A stretch of DNA of 64,000 bases from Candidatus Enterousia sp. (GTDB lineage Bacteria > Pseudomonadota > Alphaproteobacteria > Rs-D84). Position numbers and translations under genes: made by a program. Location: assembly GCA_045613345.1 (NCBI GenBank), contig JAZLAT010000031.1, forward strand, positions 50,722 through 114,721, given 5' to 3'. The notes beneath the pieces are model-generated. The model saw only the letters and a list, made by a program, of their open reading frames with translations, made no database searches and was not told where the DNA came from. The stretch's first letter is position 1; each line of letters begins with the position of its first letter. Below are positions 12,586 to 28,022 of the stretch, in pieces.

Positions 12586-13602
12586 TTAATCTTTGGCGAT
12601 ATCCCTGCCCAACATAGCATTGGAGGTCTTGTTCAAAATCGGACCAGCAATTGCGCGCGCCTTGGTCGCGCCACGTGCCAAAATTGCATCTATTTCGGTC
12701 GGATTTTGCATCAAATATTCGTATTTTTCACGTGCAGCTTTTAATTTTTCGTTTACTGCTTCGAACAGAATTTGTTTTGCGGTGCCATATCCCATGCCAC
12801 CCGCACGAAAACGTGCCGCCAAGTCTTGGATTTCTTGTTCGTTGGCGAAATGTTTATAAAGGTTGAAAATCGAAGATTCTTCGGGGTCTTTCGGTTCTTC
12901 GGGTTGTTTGCAATCCGTAACGATGCGCATAATCAGTTTTTTTAGCTGGGCTTCGGGTGCAAAAATCGGGATATAGTTATCATAACTTTTGCTCATTTTC
13001 CGCCCGTCCAGCCCCGGTACCAATCCTGCATCTTGTTGTATGTATGGTTCCGGCATTTTCAGAATGTCTTTGCCATATATATGATTAAAGCTGCCTGCGA
13101 TATCGCGTGCGAATTCCACATGCTGTTTTTGATCTTTGCCAACCGGCACAATATCTGCGCCATAAAGCAAAATATCCGCCGCCATCAATACCGGGTATGT
13201 ATAAAGTCCCATATTTATACCGCTGTCGATGTCTTCGCCTTTTTCGCGGTTTATATCGATGCGCGCCTTGTAAGAATGTGCGCGATTCATAAGCCCCTTT
13301 GGTGTGACATTTGATAACAAGGCACTCATTTGGGCGACTTCGGGCACATCAGATTGTCGGAAAAATATTGTTTTTTCTGGATCCAACCCCAAAGCAAGGA
13401 AAGTGGCAGCCACTTGATACGAGTACTCAGAAATCGTCTTCGCATCAGAAATCATATTTAACGCATGCATATCGGCAATAAATATTACCGCCTTGTGATT
13501 TTGTGCCAATTCCAACACTGGTTTTATCGCGCCGACATAGTTTCCCAAATGTGGTGTTCCTGTTGGTTTTACACCCGTCAAAATAATTTTGTCATCAAAC
13601 AT
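12586..13602 (-). CDS. trpS: Tryptophan--tRNA ligase
   Basis: TGVKPTGTPHLGNY, YPVLMAADIL, VPVGKDQKQH and KMSKS motifs. Confidence 0.97.
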   Translation of the reverse strand: MFDDKIILTGVKPTGTPHLGNYVGAIKPVLELAQNHKAVIFIADMHALNMISDAKTISEYSYQVAATFLALGLDPEKTIFFRQSDVPEVAQMSALLSNVTPKGLMNRAHSYKARIDINREKGEDIDSGINMGLYTYPVLMAADILLYGADIVPVGKDQKQHVEFARDIAGSFNHIYGKDILKMPEPYIQQDAGLVPGLDGRKMSKSYDNYIPIFAPEAQLKKLIMRIVTDCKQPEEPKDPEESSIFNLYKHFANEQEIQDLAARFRAGGMGYGTAKQILFEAVNEKLKAAREKYEYLMQNPTEIDAILARGATKARAIAGPILNKTSNAMLGRDIAKD

Positions 13603-13682
13603 AATCGCACCTTTTACCATAAATGTAGTACATTTGTTCTATGTTTTCAAGCGCGATATTTTCAAACTTTGATGCGAATACA

Positions 13683-14412: not shown

Positions 14413-15564
14413 ATGAAGAAATTTATAATCGCGGTTATGTGTGCGTTCTGTGTCGTGGGTGCATACGCCGCGGGTGAAAATGAACGCGCAACTTCGGTGG
14501 GCTATGTTGCCGAAGAATTAGAAACACGCCAAGACAAATTCAACAAATTGGGTGCCGATACCGCAATGACTTACAGTGGTTCAACCGATGGTGCGATTGG
14601 TACGTGTACTATCACGGGCGATTTGGGCGCGGAAACAAATACAACAAATACTGCGTTACCGACGGTTGGTGCGGTAAATACAAAAGTTGCAAACAAACAA
14701 GATGAATTGAACTTTGCGGCGAATACGGTTTTGATGGATACCGGTATTTCGGGCGAACCCGCCGCCAAAGGCATTTATCAATCGTCGGGTGATTATAATA
14801 CTCAAACAGATTCGCTTGTTGAAGCGGCGACTTTTAATGCGGCACTGCAAAATGCAATAAACAGTGAATTCACATGCGCACAACGCAAAGACCCCAACGA
14901 CCCCACCAGTAAATGTTTATTATTCAACATCTTTGCCCCGACACAAAATCTGATAATTCCAAACACATATACGCGGTTGGAATATTTGGAAAGCACTGGG
15001 ACCGAGTATATAGACAGCGGTGTAGAAGCGAAACCCGGCACCGTGGTCAAAACCAAATTTCAGATAATAGGAACGCCACCATCTAACACCGATAGAGGAT
15101 TTTTGGGATGTTATGGTTCATCTGGTTACCCATCATATTATTTATATCTGCATACTTTTCATGGTTCAGTTATCAATTCTTGGTTAGGAACAGGAGTAAA
15201 CAGCTTGTTTGTTCCGGATCACGATGAACACACACTTGAATTTGATGAAAATGGTAATGTCAATTTTGATGGAACACATATAGACAGTAATGTTTATGCG
15301 AACAGCATTGATGGTCCGAATATCGGGATATTTCGGTCCATACATCTTTATAGCTACACTATGCCATCAGTGGCATCAAGATTCTATTATGTGAAATTAG
15401 ATAATGGCACAATCAGACGCGACTTTATCCCCGCAAAACGCAACAGTGACGGCGAATTGGGGATGTATGACACGGTGTCGGGAACTTTCTTTACAAATGC
15501 GGGGACCGGAACATTTATTGCCGGACCAGAGCTCAGTTCAAATATTTATTTGCCGATGAATTAG
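14413..15564 (+). CDS. Secreted fibre/adhesin-like protein, paralog A
   Basis: Signal peptide; conserved N-terminal stalk; C-terminal YTRLEYLESTGTEYID...FIPAKRNSDGELGMYDTVSGTFFTNAGTGTF domain. Confidence 0.7.
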   Translation: MKKFIIAVMCAFCVVGAYAAGENERATSVGYVAEELETRQDKFNKLGADTAMTYSGSTDGAIGTCTITGDLGAETNTTNTALPTVGAVNTKVANKQDELNFAANTVLMDTGISGEPAAKGIYQSSGDYNTQTDSLVEAATFNAALQNAINSEFTCAQRKDPNDPTSKCLLFNIFAPTQNLIIPNTYTRLEYLESTGTEYIDSGVEAKPGTVVKTKFQIIGTPPSNTDRGFLGCYGSSGYPSYYLYLHTFHGSVINSWLGTGVNSLFVPDHDEHTLEFDENGNVNFDGTHIDSNVYANSIDGPNIGIFRSIHLYSYTMPSVASRFYYVKLDNGTIRRDFIPAKRNSDGELGMYDTVSGTFFTNAGTGTFIAGPELSSNIYLPMN

Positions 15565-15652: not shown

Positions 15653-15667
15653 TTGCAAAAAAACATC

Positions 15668-15696
15668 TTGACTTTTGGGTCGATTTGTGATATTAT
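15668..15696 (+). promoter_or_regulatory. Promoter upstream of the phage-like cluster
   Basis: TTGACT-N17-TATTAT with an extended -10 TG. Confidence 0.6.
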
Positions 15697-15721
15697 ACAA
15701 CGCATAAACAGGGGAATTTAT

Positions 15722-15778
15722 ATTCACACATTCGTGTGGATTTTTTTATGCCGCGCATTTTGCGCGGTTCTTTTTTAT
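15722..15778 (+). terminator. Two tandem terminator-like hairpins in the cluster leader
   Basis: ATTCACAC/GTGTGGAT plus T-run, then GCCGCGCA/TGCGCGGT plus TCTTTTTT. Confidence 0.6.
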
Positions 15779-15802
15779 CAAAATGCCAAGGAGGGTACAA
15801 TC

Positions 15803-16213
15803 ATGCAAATGACCATAATCGAAGCAAACGATGAAACAATGACTTTGGCATATGCGGTCGCACGAATCGTTTATGCGGAAACTTTGGCAAAATCACTGCG
15901 TGTTGTCGAAGCATTAACATCGATGATTGCAAATGCATCACATGCGCGTGATGAAAGTGTTGCAAAAATAATTGCGGACAAAATACTTTTCGAATCGTTG
16001 ACCACCGAATCGATTCGCCATGAATATATAAATGTTGATGCATCGCGACGTGACTTTCAAATGTGCTTGCGTGTGGCGGTGCGAATGTTGCATGGCAATT
16101 TGCCCGATATGTGTCGTGGCGCAACGCGATTCCATCGCGAAGAATTGTTACCAGAATGGGCGATTTCGCGCGGATACATCGCGGACATAGATGGAATTTT
16201 ATTTTATGCATAA
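15803..16213 (+). CDS. SleB/Hydrolase_2-family cell wall hydrolase (lysin-like)
   Basis: RBS AGGAGG; ARIVYAET...D...GATRFH...PEWA...I.GILFY. Confidence 0.75.
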   Translation: MQMTIIEANDETMTLAYAVARIVYAETLAKSLRVVEALTSMIANASHARDESVAKIIADKILFESLTTESIRHEYINVDASRRDFQMCLRVAVRMLHGNLPDMCRGATRFHREELLPEWAISRGYIADIDGILFYA

Positions 16214-16229: not shown

Positions 16230-16418
16230 ATGAGAAATTTTATTCATGGCGGTTTTTTTGCGAATCGCAAAACACAAATTATGACATGTGTCGGAATTGC
16301 ATCGGCATTGTGTGCATATTTAGTTGGCGATTCGGATCTGTTTGCTACACTCCAATCGCTGATTGCGATTGGCGGTGTTTATATGTTGCATAAATCAAAC
16401 AAAACAAAAGGAAAATAA
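16230..16418 (+). CDS. Small two-TM protein, holin-like
   Basis: 62 aa, two hydrophobic segments, basic C-tail, next to the lysin. Confidence 0.45.
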   Translation: MRNFIHGGFFANRKTQIMTCVGIASALCAYLVGDSDLFATLQSLIAIGGVYMLHKSNKTKGK

Positions 16419-16419
16419 A

Positions 16420-17079
16420 ATGGAAAATGTACCAGAAAAATTTCTGAAAGAAGACGGAACATTGAACAGTGACGCATTGATAAAATCATATACAGAATTA
16501 GAAAAAAAGATGGGGAATATGATTTCGGTGCCGGATGAAAATTCTGATGAATCGGCGCAAAGCCGCTTTCGCCATGCGATTGGTGTGCCCGACAGTGCCG
16601 AAGATTACCCACACAATGAATTATTTGATGATGAAAATGTGCGTCAAGAATTTCATAAAATTGGTTTAACAAAAACACAAGTCGAAAAAATTTATAACAT
16701 CGCAAATGAATTTTTATCACCGATGTTATCCGAAATTATTTCTGTGCGTAATGAATCAAATGCGATTAGTGAATTAAAAGAATTTTTTGGTTCTGATGAA
16801 AAAATGCATGATGCATTGGTTGCAATAAAATCATTTGGTGAAAAATTTTTACCAACCGATGCGTTTAACGAACTGTGCTCTACACCCCGCGGAATCCAAG
16901 GTGTGTATAGGATGATGCAATCTATGGAACCACGTGTAGAAATTGAAAATTCTGAATCAAAAAAATTAACAGATTCCGATTTACGACGTATGATGCGTGA
17001 CCCAAAATATTGGCGCGATAACGATGCGGAATATGTTCGTAAAATTGAAAATGGATTTAAAAAATTGTATTCAGAATAA
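16420..17079 (+). CDS. Capsid assembly scaffolding protein
   Basis: PEKF...DALIKSYTELEKKMG, PDSAEDY, MMRDPKYWRD..AEYVRK...F..LY; located upstream of the capsid gene. Confidence 0.8.
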   Translation: MENVPEKFLKEDGTLNSDALIKSYTELEKKMGNMISVPDENSDESAQSRFRHAIGVPDSAEDYPHNELFDDENVRQEFHKIGLTKTQVEKIYNIANEFLSPMLSEIISVRNESNAISELKEFFGSDEKMHDALVAIKSFGEKFLPTDAFNELCSTPRGIQGVYRMMQSMEPRVEIENSESKKLTDSDLRRMMRDPKYWRDNDAEYVRKIENGFKKLYSE

Positions 17080-17753: not shown

Positions 17754-18572
17754 ATGTCTGTTTCCATAGATCAATCGTTTGTGAAACAATTCGAAGCGGA
17801 TGTTCATTTGGCGTATCAACAGATGGGAACCAAATTGCGTTCAACAATTCGCAGTAAATCTGGCGTCATCGGTGCATCTACAACATTTCAAAAAATCGGC
17901 AAAGGCATGGCCAGCACGAAATCTCGTCATGGTATTGTACCGGTAATGAACCTTAATCATACTCCGGTAGAATGCACTTTGGCAGATTACTATGCGGGTG
18001 ATTGGGTTGATGCGTTGGACGAATTAAAAGTCAATGTTGATGAACGTCGTGTTGTCGCGTCTGCGGGTGCGTATGCATTGGGACGCAAGACCGATGAACT
18101 GATTGTTGGCGCAATGAACAGCGCAACTCAATATGTTGGTGATTATTCTACTGGTTTGACCAAGACGCTGATTTTAGGTGCTTTGGAAAAACTGAATGAA
18201 AATGATGTGCCCGATGACGGTCGCAGATTTGCAGTTGTTGGCGTAAAACAGTGGAACGAATTGTTGGGAATTTCCGAATTTTCGTCGGCTGATTATGTTG
18301 GCACTGATTTGCCGTTTATCAACGGATGCGAAACCAGAAAATGGCTTGGCATTACATGGGTGATGTATAACGCGTTGCCGTTGTCTTCATCTACACATCG
18401 TGACTGCTTTATCTATCACGCTTCCAGCATTGGTCATGCGTGTGGTCAAGAAGTCAAAACAGACATCACATGGCATGGCGAACGCGCCGCGCACTTTATC
18501 AGCAACAGTATGTCCCAGGGCGCTGTGATGATTGATGGCGATGGCATTGTTCGCGTGAAGTGTGGTGAATAA
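17754..18572 (+). CDS. Phage major capsid protein (podovirus type)
   Basis: IDQSFVKQFEADVHLAYQQMGTKLR, DYYAGDWVD.LDELK, AYALGRKTDELI, ENDVP. Confidence 0.9.
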   Translation: MSVSIDQSFVKQFEADVHLAYQQMGTKLRSTIRSKSGVIGASTTFQKIGKGMASTKSRHGIVPVMNLNHTPVECTLADYYAGDWVDALDELKVNVDERRVVASAGAYALGRKTDELIVGAMNSATQYVGDYSTGLTKTLILGALEKLNENDVPDDGRRFAVVGVKQWNELLGISEFSSADYVGTDLPFINGCETRKWLGITWVMYNALPLSSSTHRDCFIYHASSIGHACGQEVKTDITWHGERAAHFISNSMSQGAVMIDGDGIVRVKCGE

Positions 18573-18828: not shown

Positions 18829-18908
18829 AATTGATTATTGTTTCATACGAATCGGGTCGGATTTCTTCCGACCCAAATTTTAATTTTCTAGATACGGGGT
18901 AAATAAAA

Positions 18909-19427
18909 ATGCTAACTAAAATAGATTTATGCTCTATGGCATTATTAAAGTTGGGAGAAAATCCCATTCAATCGTTGTCTGATGATACAGCCGCAGCAAA
19001 GTTAGGACGAACGTTATCAGATTTTGTTATCGACACTTTATTGTCTTTACATCCGTGGCGTTTTGCTTGTCGCACTTATACATTAGCGCGAGATGAAAAC
19101 GGTGATTTTAATATTCCGTCTGATGTATTGCGTATCGTCAAGACAAATGGTCATATCATGGAAGACAAAATTGTTTCTGACACAGATACATTGAATATCA
19201 CAGCCATAGTTCGTGTCGCACCAGATAAATTCCCAAGTTATTTTGCGTCATTAGTTGCAACAAAGTTAGCGGTTGAATTTTGTATGCCGTTGATTTCTGA
19301 TCAAACAGTATTTCGCACAATGGTTGCATTATACGAAACAGAATTGCAAACGGCAAAATTTGTGGACAGCACGACATCAATAAATTCCACCATAGAAAAC
19401 TTTTCTTTAATAGATACCAGATTTTAA
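18909..19427 (+). CDS. Tail tubular protein A / adaptor (T7 gp11-like)
   Basis: DLCSMALLKLGENPIQSL, HPWRFA, IPSDVLR, FPSYF...LA.E. Confidence 0.8.
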   Translation: MLTKIDLCSMALLKLGENPIQSLSDDTAAAKLGRTLSDFVIDTLLSLHPWRFACRTYTLARDENGDFNIPSDVLRIVKTNGHIMEDKIVSDTDTLNITAIVRVAPDKFPSYFASLVATKLAVEFCMPLISDQTVFRTMVALYETELQTAKFVDSTTSINSTIENFSLIDTRF

Positions 19428-19430
19428 AAC

Positions 19431-21152
19431 ATGGGGGCAAATACAATGGTAAACTTTATCAAAACACAAACGTCTTTTGCGAATGGCGAAGTTTCACCGA
19501 AATTCTTTGCCAATGAAGATATTCATGGATTGTCCCATATGGAAAATATGGATGTGATTTCTGGGGGTGGATTGGCGCGTCGCCCAGGGTTAAAGAAAGT
19601 TGCAAAATTGCCGTCCAGTGCAAGGCTTGTTTCATTATCCGTTTCCGAAAACAATAAATATGTATTGGCGATAATGAACGGTTTAACGCGTATATTTTCA
19701 GGGGAAAATTTTGTTCAAGATCTTTTTACACCGTGGGCTTATTCCGACCTTGATTTGTTACAATACGCGGAACGTTTTGGTACGATAATTTTCGTTCATC
19801 CGAATTACAGACCAAAAATTTTATATTTGGATAATGGCGTTTTTAAAATAAGTGATTTCACTTTCTCGTGGAATGCGGCCATAGATAACGTAAATATACC
19901 ATTTATGCGTTTTGAAGATTCCAAAGATATTACACTGACATTGACAAGCACAGACAACGGAACCAAAATCACAACGAATCATGATTTTTGGACAGCCGAC
20001 AATGTTAATGGATATTTGTCCTTTTTGGGTAAGACTTGGACAGTAACATCTTATATAAACGCGACAACAATTATTGCAACATGCCACGGTGTATTTACAA
20101 TGCCAAATGACCCTATTACGGATTGGTCCGAAGCAGTATTCAGTAATCGACGTGGTTGGCCGGCGGCAATAACTTTCCATCAAGACAGGTTGGTCTTTGG
20201 GGGTGCAAAATCATGGCCGGGCGGCATATGGATGTCATGTGTTGGCCGTCATGATGATTTTAATGTTGGAACCGGTCTTGATGATGATGCCATACATTTC
20301 ACATTGTTATCGGGACATCGTCAGCATGTATGCACGTTGGTCAGCAGTGATAATTTACAGATACTTACTTCCGAAGGTGAATGGGCGGTGTCCAGCAAAC
20401 CTTTGACACCAGAGTCTGTGGATATCAAGATGCACACTTCTATTGGCAGTCCATCGGACATATATCTGCCACCGCAACAGATGGAAGACAAAACGGTTTT
20501 TGTTGCCAACAACAAACGCGACGTTCGCGAATTAGTTTTGGATAATATTTCGGGAAATTATAATGCCGAAAACCTTAGTGAATTATCAGCGCATCTTATA
20601 AATAATCCGATTGATATGGCGTACAACAAAGTACAAAAGAAATTATTTGTTGTTATGTCATCGGGTGATATTGCAGTGTTGAATTATAATGCAGCGCTTG
20701 ATATATCCGCATGGGGGCGTTATACAACAAACGGAAAGTTTTATTCTGTGGTGGTGTCCAATGGGGATACATACACGGTGACAAAACGTGATACAGATTT
20801 TTATCTTGAATATTTTTCTGATTCAGAAACCCAAGATGCAACAACCAATACATACACGGTTCGCGCGGTTGGATTACCATTGATGTCTTCGGGACACAAT
20901 GTTCATCATTCGCGAATCAAGAAAATTACGGTTCGCCTGTATGATTCTAAAACTTTGTTCGTGAACAATCTGCGTGCGGATTTACCGAATGAAATCTATG
21001 CTGATGATGCGCCGGGATTTTCCGGAGATGTATCGGTGAATGTATTGGGCACAGGAAAAGAAATAGTCGATGCGCCATGGGAAATTTCAACCACAGACGC
21101 ATTACCAATCACTGTATTATCAGTCACGATATATGGTCGATATCAAATATAA
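19431..21152 (+). CDS. Tail tubular protein B / nozzle (T7 gp12-like)
   Basis: QTSFANGEVSP, GGLARRPG, GWPAAITFHQDRLVFGG, AWGRYTT.G. Confidence 0.8.
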   Translation: MGANTMVNFIKTQTSFANGEVSPKFFANEDIHGLSHMENMDVISGGGLARRPGLKKVAKLPSSARLVSLSVSENNKYVLAIMNGLTRIFSGENFVQDLFTPWAYSDLDLLQYAERFGTIIFVHPNYRPKILYLDNGVFKISDFTFSWNAAIDNVNIPFMRFEDSKDITLTLTSTDNGTKITTNHDFWTADNVNGYLSFLGKTWTVTSYINATTIIATCHGVFTMPNDPITDWSEAVFSNRRGWPAAITFHQDRLVFGGAKSWPGGIWMSCVGRHDDFNVGTGLDDDAIHFTLLSGHRQHVCTLVSSDNLQILTSEGEWAVSSKPLTPESVDIKMHTSIGSPSDIYLPPQQMEDKTVFVANNKRDVRELVLDNISGNYNAENLSELSAHLINNPIDMAYNKVQKKLFVVMSSGDIAVLNYNAALDISAWGRYTTNGKFYSVVVSNGDTYTVTKRDTDFYLEYFSDSETQDATTNTYTVRAVGLPLMSSGHNVHHSRIKKITVRLYDSKTLFVNNLRADLPNEIYADDAPGFSGDVSVNVLGTGKEIVDAPWEISTTDALPITVLSVTIYGRYQI

Positions 21153-21173
21153 ATATAACCAAAAGGAAAAAAT

Positions 21174-21521
21174 ATGGGACAAATTGTTTCAGACGTTACA
21201 GATATTTTAAACTATAAAGACAGCAAGAAAGATGCAAACGCAACAAAAAAACAAATATTGGCGGAAATTGCAGAAAATGAAGCCGAAAAACAAAACTTGG
21301 TAAAGAAAGTTTTGGCTTCGCAACGTGCGAAATACGGCGCTTCGGGTATGTCGGGCAAAGGATTAACCGAAACAGCGGTGTTAAATCGCATGAAGGCCGA
21401 AACCGAAGAACCATATGAAAATAAAAAGAAAGCAAGTTTGAAAAAATTAAACAATACCAAAGCAGCAAAAAAGAATTTGGTGTTATCGGTGTTGCAACAT
21501 TTGGATAAATTGATCGGATAG
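21174..21521 (+). CDS. Small coiled-coil protein, internal-virion-protein-like
   Basis: LASQRAKYGASGM.G motif; position after the nozzle gene. Confidence 0.5.
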   Translation: MGQIVSDVTDILNYKDSKKDANATKKQILAEIAENEAEKQNLVKKVLASQRAKYGASGMSGKGLTETAVLNRMKAETEEPYENKKKASLKKLNNTKAAKKNLVLSVLQHLDKLIG

Positions 21522-21526
21522 GGCAA

Positions 21527-22120
21527 ATGAGTGAATATAACCAATTCTTGGATTCTTGGAATTCGATATTGGGACTGACCACACCCGAACATCACCATAT
21601 TATGACAAATTTTCTTTGTGATGTTGTCAATGGCGATGTTCGGCGTGGATTGATGATGGCGTTTCGTCATTCAGGAAAATCAACAATAGTCGGGATATTT
21701 GCCGCATGCACATTATTTTTGCATCCTGAAACACGCATATTGATATTGTCTGCAGAAACACACCTTGCAACACGTATGGTTATGCATATACGTAATATAC
21801 TGGAAAACCATTCTTGGTGTGCAGATATGGTTCCGAAAAACAAGCGTGAATGGGCGGAAAACAAGATAACAATAAATCGTCCTATTGGTATTCGCGAACC
21901 GTCGGTTGTATGCCAAGGTATCATGGGGAATATCACCGGTATGCGTGCAGATTTAATAATATGTGATGATGTCGAAGTTCCAAATACTTGCAACACATCG
22001 CGAAAACGTGCGGCATTGCGAGAAAGATTGCGTGAATTGGATTTTATATTATCGCCACATGGTGGTATGATATACATCGGCACACCACATACATTGGATA
22101 CAATCTATCGGACGACTTAG
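21527..22120 (+). CDS. Terminase large subunit, N-terminal ATPase half
   Basis: Walker A AFRHSGKST, ITGMRADLIICDDVE (Walker B), IYIGTPH coupling motif, then a stop. Confidence 0.88.
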   Translation: MSEYNQFLDSWNSILGLTTPEHHHIMTNFLCDVVNGDVRRGLMMAFRHSGKSTIVGIFAACTLFLHPETRILILSAETHLATRMVMHIRNILENHSWCADMVPKNKREWAENKITINRPIGIREPSVVCQGIMGNITGMRADLIICDDVEVPNTCNTSRKRAALRERLRELDFILSPHGGMIYIGTPHTLDTIYRTT

Positions 22121-22128
22121 TATGTTTG
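22117..22128. repeat. 12-bp inverted repeat, left end of the dnaB block
   Basis: TTAGTATGTTTG matches the reverse complement of 25431-25442 (TTACTATGTTTG) at 11/12. Confidence 0.5.
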
Positions 22129-22767
22129 TTTTGATAAAGAACTTGTCAATTCATGCAAGCGATGCAAAAGTTCCAATCCTTCATCACCGAATCGAGGTAA
22201 ATATGTTTCATATTCGGGCATGTCAATTTGAACCTGGGCACGCAAGCGATCATTCACAGGATGACTTAAAGTGTCTTTTGCCATGTCCCAAACCTTGTAT
22301 GCATTCGCTGTTTGAACAATTTCATCAAATTGTTTGCGTTTGTCGGAATGGTTTTTCAAAATACGTTGACCCAATATAACCCAATCAACACCCATTCCAC
22401 GAACCACAGGCGTATTCATAAAATGATCTAAACCTGAATGCGATGGAGTAAAAGAATCAATTGCTTCAATTAATTCGTGTATAGTATCTGGTTCGACATC
22501 GGTATTGACATTGGATTCTGCCAACATGCCACCATAAGGCAACAACTCGCGCGCAATGGAATTCATTGGTGTCTTACCGCTGCGCAGATTTTGTATATGT
22601 TGAATCAAAAACTTCCCGGTCGGCAAATCTTGCAGTTCAACCATAACGTCATCGGTTGCTTCATCAACGAATATCTTGTTGACCGCACCCCAACCGCCAA
22701 CAATAACATGTGCTTGGCGATAAAGGTTCAACAGTTTTTGAGCAATAACGCTTGCCTTGGCTTTCAT
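22117..22767 (-). CDS. Hypothetical protein
   Basis: 216-aa ORF with RBS CAGGAG, in an operon with the XRE regulator. Confidence 0.7.
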   Translation of the reverse strand: MKAKASVIAQKLLNLYRQAHVIVGGWGAVNKIFVDEATDDVMVELQDLPTGKFLIQHIQNLRSGKTPMNSIARELLPYGGMLAESNVNTDVEPDTIHELIEAIDSFTPSHSGLDHFMNTPVVRGMGVDWVILGQRILKNHSDKRKQFDEIVQTANAYKVWDMAKDTLSHPVNDRLRAQVQIDMPEYETYLPRFGDEGLELLHRLHELTSSLSKQTY

Positions 22768-22792
22768 CTCCTGGACCCTCCGTATAAAGTGG

Positions 22793-23803
22793 TTATTCGG
22801 TCAAAATCATAATGACTTTGTGCATGGTTTTTGCCGTAATTTTTTCGTCTGGACCCGACATTTGACCGTAAACATTACCTTTTGAATCGCGACGAACCAC
22901 GGCGATATTTGCCATAATTTGTTCTTCAGGATTTAATGATTTAAAATCTGCATCAATAAATACCGCCAAATCGCCAACAGCCGGGGTCTTTTTAGAATCA
23001 GCGAACACATAAGATTTGGTTGGAATAAATCCGCCCAAACGTTTGGAATTTGGCACCACGGCATACACGTTTGTGCGACCTTCAAGGTTGGCGGGTGCCG
23101 GAATAATCTTTGTGTCGGACTTTTTGAATACGATGGCTTTTCCATCGGGTGTGCCGAATACAGGAATCAATTTGCGACGCGCATTGTTATACAATTTTGC
23201 ACCGAACAAATGTTCATGGTTTTCGTCAAAATCAGCCGCCGAATCACCCGGTGACAGCACCGCGGTCACTTTTTCTTTGACCTTGTTCATTTGTTTGACC
23301 AATTCGCCCGATTTATAAAGTTCGGCAATCTTGTCAAACATGCTTTCGACACTGTGCGCAAAAGAACGTGCCAAAGGTTCGATTTCGTTTTCGTATATTT
23401 CGCGTTGACCGACTTCTATCTTGTGATATACCGATAAAGTCATACCGGCATCTTTGGCGGCCTGGGCAATAGTTTTGCCGGATTCTTGGCGGATTTTGCG
23501 TAATCCACTGCCAAAGATTTTCAAACCGCTGTCTTCGTTGTCATTCATACGGCGCGCGATTTCATTTTGCCATTTCGTTGCGACTTCGTCCGTATCTTTG
23601 ATAAAGATATCAGACAACCGGCATCCCAAAATGTTGCAGATATTTAATAACTGCTTTTGGTTCAAGCGTCGTACACCTTTTTCAATTTTTGAAATTGCCG
23701 ATAATGAAAGTCCCGAACGTCGTGCCAATTCGGTCATTTTCATTCCCGCGGCAAGACGGATGTTGCGAATATTATTTGGAAAAATGATTTCTTCTTGGGC
23801 CAT
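22793..23803 (-). CDS. Tandem XRE-HTH transcriptional regulator with S24-like C-terminus
   Basis: Two HTH_3 motifs (IRNIRLAAGMKMTELARRSGLSLSAISKIEKG; LRKIRQESGKTIAQAAKDAGMTLSVYHKIEVG) and a C-terminal IPVFG...YAV...P.VGD region. Confidence 0.8.
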   Translation of the reverse strand: MAQEEIIFPNNIRNIRLAAGMKMTELARRSGLSLSAISKIEKGVRRLNQKQLLNICNILGCRLSDIFIKDTDEVATKWQNEIARRMNDNEDSGLKIFGSGLRKIRQESGKTIAQAAKDAGMTLSVYHKIEVGQREIYENEIEPLARSFAHSVESMFDKIAELYKSGELVKQMNKVKEKVTAVLSPGDSAADFDENHEHLFGAKLYNNARRKLIPVFGTPDGKAIVFKKSDTKIIPAPANLEGRTNVYAVVPNSKRLGGFIPTKSYVFADSKKTPAVGDLAVFIDADFKSLNPEEQIMANIAVVRRDSKGNVYGQMSGPDEKITAKTMHKVIMILTE

Positions 23804-23886
23804 AGAAAACTCCTTGGGTAAATCTTGACAAAATGATAATGAATTTTGTTAAACTTGGCAAGAAAATAATTCAAGGCTTTGAACTA

Positions 23887-25437
23887 TCAATCAATATCGT
23901 CGGGAATCTCAGAAATATCAATTGGTGTCGCATCAGATACATCGGTTTCTGGGGCAACCGGATTTTCAGCAAATTCAGGAACACGACCCGCCATTTCATC
24001 AAGGTTGTCGAATAAACTGAATTCTGCCAAGAAAGCCAAGTTTATTGTATCGGTGCGACCATGACGATTCTTGCCGATAATAAGGTCGGCTTTGCCACGA
24101 GCCTTTTCAAGGCGGTGTTGCCATGAATCCACGGATTTTTCACTTGCCGTATTTGATAAACGATTCGATGGGTCACGGTTTTGCAGATAATATTCTTCAC
24201 GATATGTGAACATAACAATGTCGGCATCTTGTTCAATAGACCCTGATTCACGCAAATCTGATAATTGTGGACGTTTGTCATCGCGTGATTCGACACTGCG
24301 TGACAATTGTGACAAGGCAATCACAGGAACATTGAATTCCTTGGCCATCATTTTAAGTCCACGTGTAATTTCGGACAATTCTTGGACGCGGTTATCTTTA
24401 TTCTTGCCGCCCGGTGAAGTCAAAAGTTGCAGATAATCAATCACAATCAGTGCAATGCCATGATATTTGCGCGCCAAACGTCTAACACGTGTGCGAATCA
24501 TCGGTACCGACATACCCGGAGTATCATCAATGAAAAGCGGAATGCGTCCAATTGCATCGGAAAACTGCGTCATTTTAAGGAAGTCTTCATCACTTAAAGA
24601 ACCTTCACGCATAGCCGATGCCGAAATCCTTGATTGCGAAGACAAAACACGTGCCGCCAATTCTGATGCGCCCATTTCCAAACTGAAAAACGCCACGGCA
24701 CCATTATATTGCGGATTGGCACGCCCAGAAAAGATTGCGTTTGCAGCATTAAATGCGATATTCATGGCAAGTGCCGTTTTACCCATACCGGGTCGTCCTG
24801 CAATAATAATAAGATTGGATTTATGCATACCACTTATTGCGCGATCCAAATCGGTAAGCCCCGTGGTAAGACCAGACAGCTTTCCATCGGCCTTGTACGC
24901 GATTTCTGCTTCGGTCAATGCATCTTTTAATGCACTTGCAATCGGTGTCACATCGCGCCCGATGTCACCAATGGTTGCCATATTGAAAAGTTTTTGTTCG
25001 GCGACTTCGATCTGGCTTGATACCGGGTTGTCAATATCTTCAACAAAAGCGGCGTCCGTAATAGATTGTCCAATACCAATAAGTTCGCGTCGCATTGCGT
25101 TTTCGTGCACAATGCGTCCATATTGCTCCACATTGACAACGGTTGCACCCGCGCCGGCAAGTTGAGTTAAATAGTCAACGCCACCGACAGATTCCAAAGT
25201 GCCCTGTTGGTCAAGGTAATTTTTGATGGTGATTATATCAAACAATTCACCCGTAGAAAATTGCCGCAAAGCCAATTTATAGATTTCTTGGTGTGCAGGA
25301 TGGGAAAAATCTTCGGGACGCAAGAATTCGGAAATCTTTTCCAATGCGCGATTGTTCATCAACACCGCCGCCAACACGGCTTGTTCGGCTTCTATATTCG
25401 TTGGCAAAGATTTGGGAGTAAAGTCCATGTCAAACAT
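23887..25437 (-). CDS. dnaB: Replicative DNA helicase
   Basis: EAEQAVL, AGRPGMGKT, FFSLEM, IDYLQL, LSQLSR and DLRESGSIEQDAD motifs; full N-terminal domain. Confidence 0.97.
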   Translation of the reverse strand: MFDMDFTPKSLPTNIEAEQAVLAAVLMNNRALEKISEFLRPEDFSHPAHQEIYKLALRQFSTGELFDIITIKNYLDQQGTLESVGGVDYLTQLAGAGATVVNVEQYGRIVHENAMRRELIGIGQSITDAAFVEDIDNPVSSQIEVAEQKLFNMATIGDIGRDVTPIASALKDALTEAEIAYKADGKLSGLTTGLTDLDRAISGMHKSNLIIIAGRPGMGKTALAMNIAFNAANAIFSGRANPQYNGAVAFFSLEMGASELAARVLSSQSRISASAMREGSLSDEDFLKMTQFSDAIGRIPLFIDDTPGMSVPMIRTRVRRLARKYHGIALIVIDYLQLLTSPGGKNKDNRVQELSEITRGLKMMAKEFNVPVIALSQLSRSVESRDDKRPQLSDLRESGSIEQDADIVMFTYREEYYLQNRDPSNRLSNTASEKSVDSWQHRLEKARGKADLIIGKNRHGRTDTINLAFLAEFSLFDNLDEMAGRVPEFAENPVAPETDVSDATPIDISEIPDDID

Positions 25438-26275
25438 AGTAAACGAAAAAAATGTTTTTTCAACGCCTTTTTTATCAGGCTATGTCGAATTAAAGATTCC
25501 GATTATGGATTCGAACGGAAATTCCGCATGGCCAGCGGTTTTTCCGGCGGAAAAAATAGAACAAATTCGGCAAACTGTGGGACCGCGACATTTTTCGGCG
25601 CAAATGATGCTGGAATACGTGCCACCAGACAAAATCAGGCTTGACCCGGGCGGAATAAAAATTTACGCAGACGAATTTGATGGTCGGTTCGGTCGCATCG
25701 GCGAACACCGAATCACTGGTGCCGCCATTTACTGGGACCCGTCCGGTGGCAGGCGCGGTGGCGACAACAGTGTATGCGTGCTTGTCTATCGTGATGATAA
25801 TAACAGGTATATTTTTATACATGATGTCATGTATATGGTTGTACCTGATTCGGTTGAATACCCATTGGCGTACCAGTGTGAGCGTGCTTTGGACTTCGTT
25901 CGTCGCTATGGTTTGCACAGTTTATCGGTTGAAACGAACGGCATTGGTGGTGCATTGCCAGAAATCTTGCGCAACACAGTTAAACGTGCGGGATACGGCA
26001 TACAAATAACACCAATAACCAACAGCCGCCGCAAAGAAGACCGAATCTTGGATGCAATTGAACCATTGTTATCTACGGGGCGACTTTTTGCACATCAAAG
26101 AATTACGCAAACACCACTGATTTCAGAAATGCTGGCTTGGACACCCCTTGGTGGGGCGGAACATGATGACGGATTGGACGCAGTGGCGGGTGCGATTACA
26201 TGCAATCCTGTACCGGTGCGCGCAACAAATTATGCGCATCATCGGTATATGGCAAATACAGACTTTAAGGTTTAA
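25427..26275 (+). CDS. Terminase large subunit, C-terminal lid/nuclease half
   Basis: SAWP..F, FSAQMML, YWDPS, VETNGIG, RKEDRI, HDDGLDA; the in-frame ATG at 25427 overlaps the dnaB start head-to-head. Confidence 0.85.
   Translation: MSNIVNEKNVFSTPFLSGYVELKIPIMDSNGNSAWPAVFPAEKIEQIRQTVGPRHFSAQMMLEYVPPDKIRLDPGGIKIYADEFDGRFGRIGEHRITGAAIYWDPSGGRRGGDNSVCVLVYRDDNNRYIFIHDVMYMVVPDSVEYPLAYQCERALDFVRRYGLHSLSVETNGIGGALPEILRNTVKRAGYGIQITPITNSRRKEDRILDAIEPLLSTGRLFAHQRITQTPLISEMLAWTPLGGAEHDDGLDAVAGAITCNPVPVRATNYAHHRYMANTDFKV
25431..25442. repeat. 12-bp inverted repeat, right end of the dnaB block
   Basis: CAAACATAGTAA, spanning the dnaB start codon. Confidence 0.5.
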
Positions 26276-26296
26276 CAAACAAAAAAAGGAAAAAAA

Positions 26297-27523
26297 ATGA
26301 AATATGATTTGGAAAAAATGTATCGGCGGGCGATTGCCTTGCGTGAACCTTGGTTAAAGCGTTGGGACGATGCGCGCCGCTATACAATGCCGCAATCAGA
26401 TTCAGACATGGCAACATTGTTCGATGCGACGGCGGCGGATGCGGCAGACAATTTGGCGGCGTGTATGTATTCGTTGTTGACGCCACCGGAATCTTTGTGG
26501 ATTCACCTTGTCCCCGAAAGCGACGAATCGCCCAATGCAGAAGTTGCGACGGCGGCATTGCGCGCGAACCTTAACGATTCGAATTTCTATACGACGGTTC
26601 ATCAATGCTATCTGGATTTAGTGACTTTGGGAACGGCATGTCTGTTTATGGCGGAAAGCCCAATTGGTGCCGCCAGTGCGTTCACATTTACGGCGATACC
26701 AATGACCGATATAGCGATTTTGCCGAATGCGGTTTTCCACACGGCGTCTATCACATTACAAGATGTCGCGACACGTTATCCTGAATGGACACCGCCGCGC
26801 GAATTTCGCGACAAAATGAAACAGAACCCAGAAACCACGGTGCGGTTGGTCCAAGCTTTGGTCGATAAAGAATTTACGGCATGGTTGGATGTTGGTGGCG
26901 ATATAGAAAACAATATCGTATCCCGTGGAGAATTCGAAACAAATCCTTATTTGATTTTCCGTTGGGCGTTGCTTAGTGGCGAACAATACGGCATTGGTCC
27001 AATTTTGCGCGCGTTGCCGGACATCAAGACGGCAAATAAAGTTGTCGAATTGGTCTTGAAAAATGCGACTATCGCGGTCAGTGGTATATGGCAGGCGGAC
27101 GATGATGGGGTTATAAACCTTGGTAACATCAACCTGACCCCGGGGGCGATTATACCCAAAGCCGTGGGCAGTTCGGGTCTGACGCCATTGGCAACGGGTG
27201 CGAATTTCGATGTATCACAAATAGTCTTGCGCGATTTGCGCGACCGCATACGCCACACAATGTTGGCAGACCGGCTTGGGTTACTTTCTGAAAAAGAAAT
27301 GACCGCCACAGAAATATTGGCGCGCAACGCCGATATGCTGCGTATTTTGGGCGCGACATATGGACGGTTGCTGCATGAATTTATAAGACCATTGTGCGAT
27401 CGCGGACTTCAAATTTTGGCGCGTCGTGGTGTAATTGACAAGATTTCGTTGCATGGTGATGCAGAATTAAAATACATTGCGCCAATCGCACAAATGGTTG
27501 CAAATAACGATACGATAATTTAA
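26297..27523 (+). CDS. Portal / head-tail connector protein (T7 gp8/Bbp21 family), compact
   Basis: LFDATAADAADNLAA, SNFY...YLDLVTLGTA, RW...GEQYG.GP...ALPDIK, MTATEI. Confidence 0.9.
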   Translation: MKYDLEKMYRRAIALREPWLKRWDDARRYTMPQSDSDMATLFDATAADAADNLAACMYSLLTPPESLWIHLVPESDESPNAEVATAALRANLNDSNFYTTVHQCYLDLVTLGTACLFMAESPIGAASAFTFTAIPMTDIAILPNAVFHTASITLQDVATRYPEWTPPREFRDKMKQNPETTVRLVQALVDKEFTAWLDVGGDIENNIVSRGEFETNPYLIFRWALLSGEQYGIGPILRALPDIKTANKVVELVLKNATIAVSGIWQADDDGVINLGNINLTPGAIIPKAVGSSGLTPLATGANFDVSQIVLRDLRDRIRHTMLADRLGLLSEKEMTATEILARNADMLRILGATYGRLLHEFIRPLCDRGLQILARRGVIDKISLHGDAELKYIAPIAQMVANNDTII

Positions 27524-27744
27524 TGGTGACCATAATGAAAAAAATAGAACACGCATACGCGCGAACTTTTTCGTCTGAATCTGGGGCGATTGTGTTGGGA
27601 CACTTGCGCCGTATCACGATTGAACGCGTCTTGGGGCCAAATGCAACGGACGCGGAACTTCGCACACTTGAAGGTATGCGGTCATTGGTTCATCAAATAG
27701 AGCAACTGATATCACGGGGGCGGGGCGATGCAGAAACAACATAA
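27523..27744 (+). CDS. Bbp19-like small phage protein
   Basis: YARTFSSESGAIVLGHLR...EGMRSLV..I; follows the portal gene. Confidence 0.7.
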   Translation: MVTIMKKIEHAYARTFSSESGAIVLGHLRRITIERVLGPNATDAELRTLEGMRSLVHQIEQLISRGRGDAETT

Positions 27745-27988
27745 CAGTTTATCAAACATCATCGACACCCTGCGTAATGGTTGGTTTTTAATCGCATTTA
27801 TCGCGGGTCTGATATATTGGGTTGCGCGGCAAGATAATGCGCTTGTGGAACTGGACCGATTGACGGCACGAATGACGACATTGGAAAATCGCACGACTAT
27901 TCTGGAAACCGGAATAGGGCAATTACAATTAAAAATTGATGGAATCAAAGAAGATTTGACGCTGATTAAAACGGCGGTAATAAAATAG
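27728..27988 (+). CDS. Single-TM plus coiled-coil protein (possible lysis accessory)
   Basis: Hydrophobic residues ~18-31, then a heptad pattern. Confidence 0.5.
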   Translation: MQKQHNSLSNIIDTLRNGWFLIAFIAGLIYWVARQDNALVELDRLTARMTTLENRTTILETGIGQLQLKIDGIKEDLTLIKTAVIK

Positions 27989-27993
27989 TAATG

Positions 27994-28022
27994 AAAAACC
28001 GCGGGGAATTACCCCGCGGTTT
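27994..28022. terminator. Bidirectional terminator
   Basis: AAAAACCGCGGGG-AATTA-CCCCGCGGTTT between convergent genes. Confidence 0.8.

Follow-up and report, generated by a model that had tools for sequence, protein, structure and literature searches.

Large terminases (TerL) are described in textbooks as single-chain motors. In the T7 group, represented by T7 gp19 'DNA maturase B' (4bij) and by the TerL of phage PhiV-1 (8dgc), the chain carries an ATPase domain followed by an RNaseH-like nuclease, and its gene keeps company with those of the scaffold, the capsid, the tail tubular proteins A and B (tube A and tube B) and the portal. The present work deals with a TerL of this family which is encoded by two genes, TerL-N and TerL-C, in Candidatus Enterousia sp. 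(Alphaproteobacteria, order Rs-D84). The stretch analysed, hereafter the window, comprises 64,000 nucleotides of contig 31 (JAZLAT010000031.1, positions 50,722 to 114,721) of a 1.07-Mb assembly (GCA_045613345.1, 93.6% complete). The domain order and the neighbouring genes are those of the T7 group and both T7-type domains are present (an ASCE ATPase and an RNaseH/RuvC-like nuclease), but they are not carried by a single polypeptide: the two products have 197 and 282 aa, versus 586 aa for the 8dgc chain. Between them lies a block of three genes on the opposite strand, hyp216, XRE336 and dnaB. The cluster also differs from the T7 group in being chromosomal, in having no phage replication module nearby and in its apparent vertical inheritance across the order. 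We consider it likely that the two halves form a stable, non-covalent two-chain T7-type TerL inside a particle cluster which has probably been domesticated.

Several systems in which a gene is found in pieces have been described. The split NrdA of phage Aeh1 is an example, among phages, of an essential enzyme whose gene is interrupted yet functional. Interrupted phage terminase genes are presented, in passages of one study, as cases of introns or inteins restoring one chain (PMC3322345), and nrdD of Felix O1-like phages is given in part of another as split by a homing endonuclease gene (PMC4837284). The Rs-D84 TerL resembles these genes, but it has no intron match, no room for an intein and no homing endonuclease in the gap, and its pieces lie kilobases apart in different operons. 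In herpesvirus UL15, an analogy drawn in an earlier note written from the letters of this DNA, the terminase coding sequence is likewise divided into two blocks that enclose other genes, and mRNA splicing rejoins the exons to a single polypeptide; in contrast, each Rs-D84 half has its own start and stop, with no splicing signal or intron. The sigK skin and nifD elements likewise interrupt a gene by several kb carrying other genes. They possess their own recombinase and conserved repeats and their excision restores one open reading frame (ORF), whereas the dnaB block has neither a recombinase match nor a conserved repeat, and the TerL halves are separate even where the block is absent.

The cluster as a whole is to be compared with the gene transfer agents (GTAs) and viriforms, such as RcGTA, BaGTA and VSH-1. 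In both cases, phage-derived head, tail and packaging genes are under purifying selection, are present in single copy, follow the host lineage, are interspersed with host genes and have no adjacent integrase or replication genes. The Rs-D84 module differs in being of podovirus/T7 type and in having its terminase in two genes. Recognised GTA families appear, from PMC9662315, to be of other types than podovirus/T7. Enterousia belongs to an uncultured order in which genome reduction is general, as stated in parts of the mSphere Enterousia paper; the main text of that paper does not mention phage, terminase or capsid, and its supplements might list such genes (PMC12306168). The PhiGT1 paper, in the portions bearing on this subject, concerns temperate podophage lineages and not this cluster (PMC10386132). 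In the literature, no report was found of a bacterial lineage that maintains TerL in the form of two genes, nor of a T7-type domesticated cluster in Rs-D84 or Enterousia.

Two genes tile one T7-type large terminase

TerL-N (21527-22120, + strand, 197 aa) is matched by Pfam Terminase_6N and corresponds to the N-terminal part of the packaging ATPase, with a Walker A (SGKST), a Walker B (ICDDVE) and a motif III (GTPH). TerL-C (25427-26275, + strand) has 282 aa counted from the ATG at 25427, its frame being open from 25352. It contains the last ATPase strand and the small subdomain (residues ~1-75), then the RNaseH-like nuclease with its WDPS, ETNG and HDDGLD motifs, and is matched by the Pfam T7 terminase RNaseH-like domain (Terminase-T7_RNaseH-like) and by Terminase_6C. 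A GGGAG located 8 nt upstream of its ATG provides TerL-C with its own Shine-Dalgarno sequence. In alignments of 22 sequences spanning the order, residues G50-K51-S52, D147-D148-E150 and G185-T186-P187-H188 of TerL-N and D104, E169, D247 and D248 of TerL-C are invariant. The ORF map agrees with the gene coordinates of the earlier note, and both halves are indeed open and provided with their catalytic motifs, as had been noticed there.

A TerL-N profile compared with 1.84 billion representative proteins retrieved close relatives of 450-510 aa, the sequences of which continue straight across the position of the junction; in related alphaproteobacteria, intact TerL spans 457-511 aa. As shown by BLASTP against five intact TerLs, residues 2-197 of TerL-N correspond to residues ~5-199 and residues 12-282 of TerL-C to residues ~204-496, with just 4-10 residues between the two matches. 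The sum of both halves (197 + 282 = 479 aa) falls within the 457-505 aa of the intact forms tiled. TerL-N ends 3 residues past TIY, and in TerL-C 11-14 residues precede the point where the TerL homology resumes. The halves can therefore be joined to a plausible continuous TerL, as supposed earlier, and nothing is lost at the cut. Among isolated phages, even the nearest relatives of TerL-C share less than 30% identity with it, so that a close cultured phage is lacking.

With E values of 1e-33 to 7e-35, the TerL-N profile aligns to residues 28-211 of PhiV-1 TerL and to residues 19-210 of T7 DNA maturase B. The nuclease part of TerL-C corresponds to residues 407-480 of 8dgc, and in fold comparisons the TerL-C model is closest to the PhiV-1 chain 8dgc_E (E 7e-11), many TerL nuclease domains coming next. 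Because the TerL-N profile covers only these residues of the T7-group proteins, the alignments place the cut within the ATPase domain, just behind the strand of motif III, rather than at the linker between ATPase and nuclease. It lies after GTPH..TIY and before the next strand, PFL.G[YF].L.IP. The strand order of ASCE ATPases is 5-1-4-3-2; we take the cut to fall between strands four and five, so that TerL-C would presumably supply strand 5 of the ATPase core.

Folded alone, TerL-C has a predicted local distance difference test (pLDDT) value below 50 for residues 1-23. In the two-chain model, residues 14-26 of TerL-C are located at the interface with a low expected error, and residues 19-26 pair with residues 40-46 of TerL-N, the strand leading into Walker A. 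The interaction prediction score from aligned errors (ipSAE) is 0.88, versus 0.36 for the best of three controls; the runs share at least 92% of contacts and the pLDDT of the partner is 81. In the calibration, 58 of 80 solved complexes and 2 of 110 mismatched pairs attained the ipSAE mark, the present model having been run on its own alignments and not on those of the calibration. As the score possibly reflects the memory that the program keeps of solved intact TerL structures, the model suggests that the halves look like a cut TerL, and their binding stays an inference.

In the mechanism that we propose, TerL-N and TerL-C would be translated separately and would assemble without a covalent link, the first TerL-C strand completing the ATPase sheet beside the strand preceding Walker A. 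The assembled pair would then act as an ordinary TerL on the portal. The split point, the independent movement of the halves, the selection on both, the absence of the whole cluster from 7 genomes and the tiling of intact relatives are observed, while the physical assembly of the two chains, the packaging activity and the production of particles are inferred. Two independent halves would also be separable by chromosomal rearrangement, and the old spacer between them would, in the Enterousia family, have come to be occupied by hyp216, XRE336 and dnaB, which are host genes. If this is true, the assembly of the motor depends on two separately transcribed genes. A stable cut kept throughout an order amounts to a natural protein-complementation experiment on an enzyme taken for a single-chain motor; it shows where the ATPase fold tolerates a break and offers a handle on motor assembly and on the coupling of ATPase and nuclease.

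The same cut is found throughout Rs-D84

TerL-N was detected in 37 of 41 relatives, the genome of the window included. When Rs-D84 genomes with a completeness of 85% or more were considered, 191 of 201 had it; among the matches listed, its frame measures 198-233 aa. In every locus read (five in which the halves are adjacent and three within-family variants) TerL-N ends 2-5 residues past TIY. TerL-C begins just ahead of PFL, except in locus L024 where the start of the frame is slightly downstream. A scan of GTDB species-representative genomes gave 80 Enterousia loci and all of them fit the arrangement of the window, that is TerL-N, then hyp216, XRE and dnaB on the opposite strand, then TerL-C and the portal; 71 are complete and 9 are cut by a contig end. 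The other families are organised differently. In f2, f4 and f5 (5 loci), the two ORFs are adjacent on one strand with a spacer of 170-340 nt. In f3 (5 loci), TerL-N is followed after several kb by portal, TerL-C and Bbp19, and in f6 (1 locus) the portal comes directly after TerL-N.

Two ORFs were thus present in every Rs-D84 locus read, with the same cut point, and single-chain intact TerL occurs outside the order. Read from gene order and sequence, these results indicate that TerL was already two genes before the Rs-D84 families diverged and that the pieces later moved independently. The split probably arose once, or at least early, in Rs-D84. Since the halves are separate ORFs even where no block exists, the split is older than the dnaB block, which the earlier note had taken to be what divides the terminase. 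Automatic annotation runs a risk here: the halves may be called "partial terminase" or prophage remnant and the dnaB block an insertion, and both names would be misleading.

Some isolated frames were noticed besides. The TerL-N of genome G030 contains one in-frame TAG and is the sole exception among the open frames listed. A few TerL-N-like frames of 200-230 aa exist outside Rs-D84 (G380; P0046, P0097 and P0114), that of P0046 ending 9 residues past TIY; these may be fragments, pseudogenes or splits of independent origin. Two genomes of the genus (G011:C30 and G014:C15) harbour a second, distant TerL-like frame of ~480 aa (25-29% identity), which probably belongs to an unrelated prophage.

The dnaB block and its junctions

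The junctions of the block have no spacer, in agreement with the earlier note. On the left, TerL-N and hyp216 have 4 nt of their ORF coordinates in common, and 2 nt belong to both stop codons (TAG 22118-22120 on the + strand, TAA 22117-22119 on the - strand). On the right, the starts of TerL-C and dnaB overlap by 11 nt (ATG 25427 on the + strand, ATG 25437 on the - strand). Among 73 relatives with the same gene order, the left overlap is of 4 nt in 47; the right one is of 11 nt in 45 and is replaced by a gap of 4 or 7 nt in the remaining 28.

The three genes of the block are read on the - strand. The first, hyp216 (22117-22767, 216 aa), is conserved in the genus; searches of Pfam, PHROG, NCBIfam and the atlas returned nothing for it. 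The second, XRE336 (22793-23803, 336 aa), encodes a tandem helix-turn-helix regulator of XRE type with HTH_3 in two stretches, all its family matches being to HTH families. The third, dnaB (23887-25437, 516 aa), encodes a replicative helicase matched by Pfam DnaB and DnaB_C and, above the respective cut-offs of 540 and 385, by NCBIfam NF006606 (608.6 bits) and TIGR00665 (509 bits). The description of a tandem-XRE regulator and of a full host-type dnaB between the halves is consequently exact. Elsewhere in the genome, DnaB_C has a single further match, of 57.5 bits, far under every helicase cut-off, and on these profile scores the dnaB of the window is the only bona fide dnaB of the host in the assembly. 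As side observations, the ~130 C-terminal residues of XRE336 have no family match; XRE336 is conserved like a core gene and its orthologues are found order-wide at other sites; a 468-aa divergent DnaB/RecA-like ATPase, far under every helicase cut-off, is encoded at G000:C25:5324-6109 (L114 1072-2478); and in G010 (L026 5876-7398) the dnaB match is broken into two pieces that abut, an indication of a frameshift or of an assembly error.

In the five genomes from other families, the dnaB orthologues (42-53% identity) are all unlinked to TerL, and the XRE336 orthologues (34-41% identity) all lie elsewhere, unlinked to dnaB or TerL. Inside the family, three genera have the Enterousia arrangement and two have extra DNA inside the block. 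In genus g14 (L151 73-4904), dnaB is flipped onto the TerL strand; in g15 (L152 4001-7221), it stands alone and co-directional between the halves; in g17 (L150 6828-8717), the halves are ~0.4 kb apart with nothing between them and no dnaB at the junction. In g19, nothing related was found within 3.8 kb past TerL-N, and in g20 the contig ends within the block. On this comparison of gene orders, the pattern is that of ordinary local rearrangement in the spacer between two independent genes, and the block reads as host DNA, a passenger of synteny, neither a mobile nor an invertible element.

The earlier note had proposed, as one of three models, a programmed inversion or excision which would rebuild one TerL and remove or re-wire dnaB. 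In its favour are the tightness of the junctions and an inverted repeat with arms at 22117-22128 and 25431-25442. The 11/12 pair does exist, but it is no better than chance: the region 21000-27000 contains 248 inverted pairs and this one does not rank among the 25 longest, and 8 of 2000 random pairs of 40-nt windows also reach 11/12. None of the 73 relatives of the same gene order reaches 10/12 at the junctions; their best values are 6-9/12, like the chance distribution. Since the repeat is neither conserved nor above the chance level, the block has no element-like ends. An inverted repeat would moreover invert the block and not excise it, and inversion leaves the halves unjoined. No recombinase family match was obtained for hyp216, XRE336 and dnaB in Pfam, PHROG or NCBIfam, and tyrosine recombinases were found on other contigs only, none on that of the window. 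Contigs from 4 runs of 4 studies span both junctions and contain no alternative joint, though contigs drop rare forms. In f3, where TerL-C comes after the portal, excision could not join the halves, which are also separate where the block is absent; and dnaB has the other orientation in two genera of the family. The particle production of known GTAs kills the producing cell, and for this reason the loss of dnaB would be tolerable in principle. With all these observations, programmed excision or inversion appears highly improbable.

Three other ways of restoring or explaining the interrupted gene were considered and rejected. For a group I or II intron, Rfam scans at gathering thresholds of the window and of the five adjacent-half loci gave tRNAs only, no sensitive E-value scan of the junctions having been made. 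In a split intein, the N-extein is followed by an N-intein of ~100 aa and the C-extein is preceded by a C-intein of ~35 aa; TerL-N stops too close to TIY to leave room for it, and Pfam detected no intein domain. An excisable intervening element of the skin/nifD type would be expected to show a recombinase match or conserved junction repeats, and neither was present.

Antisense coupling was another of the models of the earlier note. Added to a two-chain TerL, it would consist of transcriptional interference, in which dnaB expression would be reduced during particle production, either by read-through from the capsid-tail operon or by a promoter of TerL-C lying within dnaB. In most Enterousia the genes do converge and diverge without spacer, so that the TerL-C promoter would have to sit inside dnaB and that of dnaB inside TerL-C, and a promoter-like site of the - strand ends at 25436. 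Such sites are, however, not enriched in the window (49 versus 44.4 +/- 6.9 expected) and the scan is uninformative on transcription units. Furthermore, dnaB is on the TerL strand in g14 and g15, is absent from the junction in g17 and is unlinked in the five other-family genomes. Because the orientation and the linkage of dnaB vary in this way, the coupling is lineage-specific at best and not conserved, and we regard it as improbable.

Selection on both halves and loss of the cluster

The ratio of non-synonymous to synonymous substitution rates (dN/dS) was estimated among the loci of the genus by the NG86 method, with only the pairs having a dS of 0.1-1.5. The median is 0.114 for TerL-N (217 of 3160 pairs) and 0.206 for TerL-C (251 of 2485), compared with 0.086 for the capsid gene (1565 of 2556), 0.075 for the portal (215 of 2145), 0.064 for dnaB (351 of 2628), 0.089 for XRE336 (415 of 2850) and 0.226 for hyp216 (233 of 2926), these values being rough since dS is near saturation (median ~1.3). 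All genes of the cluster fall between 0.06 and 0.25. Both TerL halves are under purifying selection and neither evolves neutrally.

TerL-N is missing from 10 genomes. Seven of them are also devoid of TerL-C and of the capsid gene, including a single-contig genome and another which is 98% complete. The remaining three possess TerL-C, and two of these are 60-contig assemblies also without capsid gene, in which the absences are likely due to assembly gaps. The cluster is lost as a unit and is dispensable.

These data bear on two further explanations. A decaying prophage with a pseudogene terminase, or an assembly artefact, might be suspected in view of an interrupted gene without phage replication or integration genes nearby. 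The purifying selection on both halves and the frames, open in all the matches listed but that of G030, argue against decay. The arrangement is the same in the 80 independent loci of metagenome-assembled genomes (MAGs), among which L082 is described in its record as the circular chromosome of a long-read MAG, and the junctions are spanned by contigs from four studies. The assembly is sound on the point of misassembly raised by the earlier note, and we give this explanation almost no weight.

The second would be that the halves are functional but separate, one as ATPase and the other as nuclease, or that they serve a DNA-free shell or another structure, with no two-chain motor. The location of the halves in different transcription units, their unequal dN/dS (0.11 versus 0.21) and the much reduced space for internal-virion genes speak for it. 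Nevertheless, the cut is inside the ATPase fold and not between domains; residues 1-23 of TerL-C are disordered alone and residues 14-26 are at the interface of the complex model; the genomes lacking TerL-N also lack TerL-C and the capsid gene in seven cases of ten; and the portal and both sets of catalytic residues are kept. Separate functions are, in our opinion, unlikely.

The stable two-chain terminase, which was also among the models of the earlier note, is the one in agreement with the order-wide split point, the independent movement of the halves, the purifying selection, the co-loss with the capsid gene and the complex model. Several points nonetheless weigh against it. In trees of TerL-N (42 rows) and TerL-C (39 rows), in which L021, L022 and L024 form long branches, the backbones are unresolved and leave a single clade of split forms undecided. 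The dN/dS values and the complex score carry the reservations given above, and TerL-C evolves about two times faster than TerL-N. The cluster is dispensable, having been lost in ~3.5% of the genomes searched. No RNA run containing the stretch was found. Finally, the distance from tube B to TerL-N is 0.37 kb here, versus 1.2-2.2 kb in other Rs-D84 families and 3-4 kb in other alphaproteobacteria, where this space holds presumed internal-virion genes. The ejection proteins may be reduced or encoded elsewhere, and the particle is perhaps not a complete DNA-delivering one.

A probable GTA-like particle cluster

The closest public loci come from rumen and gut samples and are MAGs designated Candidatus Enterousia or Alphaproteobacteria bacterium. 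The identity of TerL-N is 69-88% within the genus and falls to 45-52% in the other families, and the divergence of the cluster genes tracks host distance, a formal cophylogeny being outside the scope of the trees. The cluster is near-universal in the order and in single copy, with host genes interspersed and purifying selection on every gene. As in GTAs and viriforms, structural and packaging genes are thus inherited with the host and selected (191 of 201 genomes, dN/dS 0.06-0.25). The search around the cluster gave no phage integration or replication gene. A match to T7-type RNA polymerase (PF00940) was not obtained in the own genome, but the positive control likewise remained without match. 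Because of the near-universal single copy, the host-tracking divergence, the selection, the interspersed host genes and the lack of integration and replication genes nearby, the cluster is probably a vertically inherited, domesticated T7-type particle cluster with a GTA-like character.

These bacteria, with genomes of ~0.7-1.1 Mb, retain ~12 kb of virion genes of T7 type, on which selection is strong. The capsid protein has an identity of 68% with its counterparts in other Rs-D84 families, and of 55-64% at the level of the class. It is more conserved between families than dnaB, which argues for a host-beneficial, GTA-like function in this uncultured lineage; if so, a podovirus-type member would be added to the known domesticated elements. 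Much more tentatively, Rs-D84, and perhaps many other Alphaproteobacteria in which this cluster has an intact TerL, might possess an undescribed podovirus-type (T7-like) GTA, with a heterodimeric TerL motor in Rs-D84, and the position of dnaB in Enterousia could tie replication capacity to particle production.

Outside the order, a close homologue of this TerL is present in 29 of the 199 alphaproteobacterial genomes sampled, nearly always as a frame of at least 493 aa. Ten of these class-level loci were fetched (L138-L147, GC content 0.30-0.72). They largely follow a canonical order, portal-Bbp19-scaffold-capsid-tube A-tube B-(3-4 kb)-TerL-endolysin-like, without every gene being found in each. 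These clusters may be prophages or an old domesticated element. The order of the cluster genes has changed on more than one occasion.

Other genes of the cluster

Host genes flank the cluster: the gene of a class I (Trp/Tyr-type) tRNA synthetase (12586-13620) precedes it, and those of thymidine kinase and of M48 and M23 peptidases lie beyond its other end. Its left edge is uncertain: the membership of a 383-aa ORF (14413-15564, + strand) located between the tRNA synthetase gene and the cluster is in doubt, and this ORF has no match in Pfam, PHROG or NCBIfam. On the same + strand follow an endolysin-like protein of 186 aa (15653-16213; PHROG 938 endolysin, E 1.7e-06), the T7-type capsid assembly (scaffold) protein (16363-17079; Pfam Phage_T7_Capsid, E 2.9e-10) and the major capsid protein (17754-18572; Pfam Phage_capsid_2, E 1.4e-71). 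The endolysin-like gene precedes the scaffold gene here, and weak homologues (26-35% identity) are found just after the intact TerL in 6 of 10 alphaproteobacterial loci.

Tube A (18909-19427, + strand) is matched by Pfam Tube under the curated cut-off (E 0.0011) and has syntenic homologues in all related clusters; the tube B-like protein (19431-21152, +) is matched by PHROG 376 tail protein (E 2.8e-80). Immediately before TerL-N, where a small terminase is expected, a lysine-rich protein of 115 aa is encoded (21174-21521, +). It has no match in Pfam or PHROG; the atlas relates it to small viral hypothetical proteins (0.97-0.98) and to the T7_gp14 internal-virion cluster (0.90), which is a lead only. 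It could represent either the small terminase or an internal virion protein.

Downstream of TerL-C, the portal or head-to-tail connector (26297-27523, + strand; Pfam Head-tail_con, E 1.1e-80) is followed by a small Bbp19-like phage protein (27523-27744, +; Pfam Phage_Bbp19, E 5.4e-12) and by an 86-aa protein (27728-27988, +) with a weak PHROG 736 match, syntenic in the genus, which is the last gene of the TerL-C/portal unit. A terminator-like hairpin at 27996-28022 (+), with a stem of 11 pairs, 8 of them G-C, and a T run, closes this unit according to a consensus scan only. Such hairpins are weakly enriched in the window (26 versus 18.7 +/- 4.7 expected). Another one, of 8 pairs with 6 G-C, is located at 18854-18874, downstream of the capsid gene and ~35 nt before tube A; in T7, the capsid gene is also followed by a terminator.

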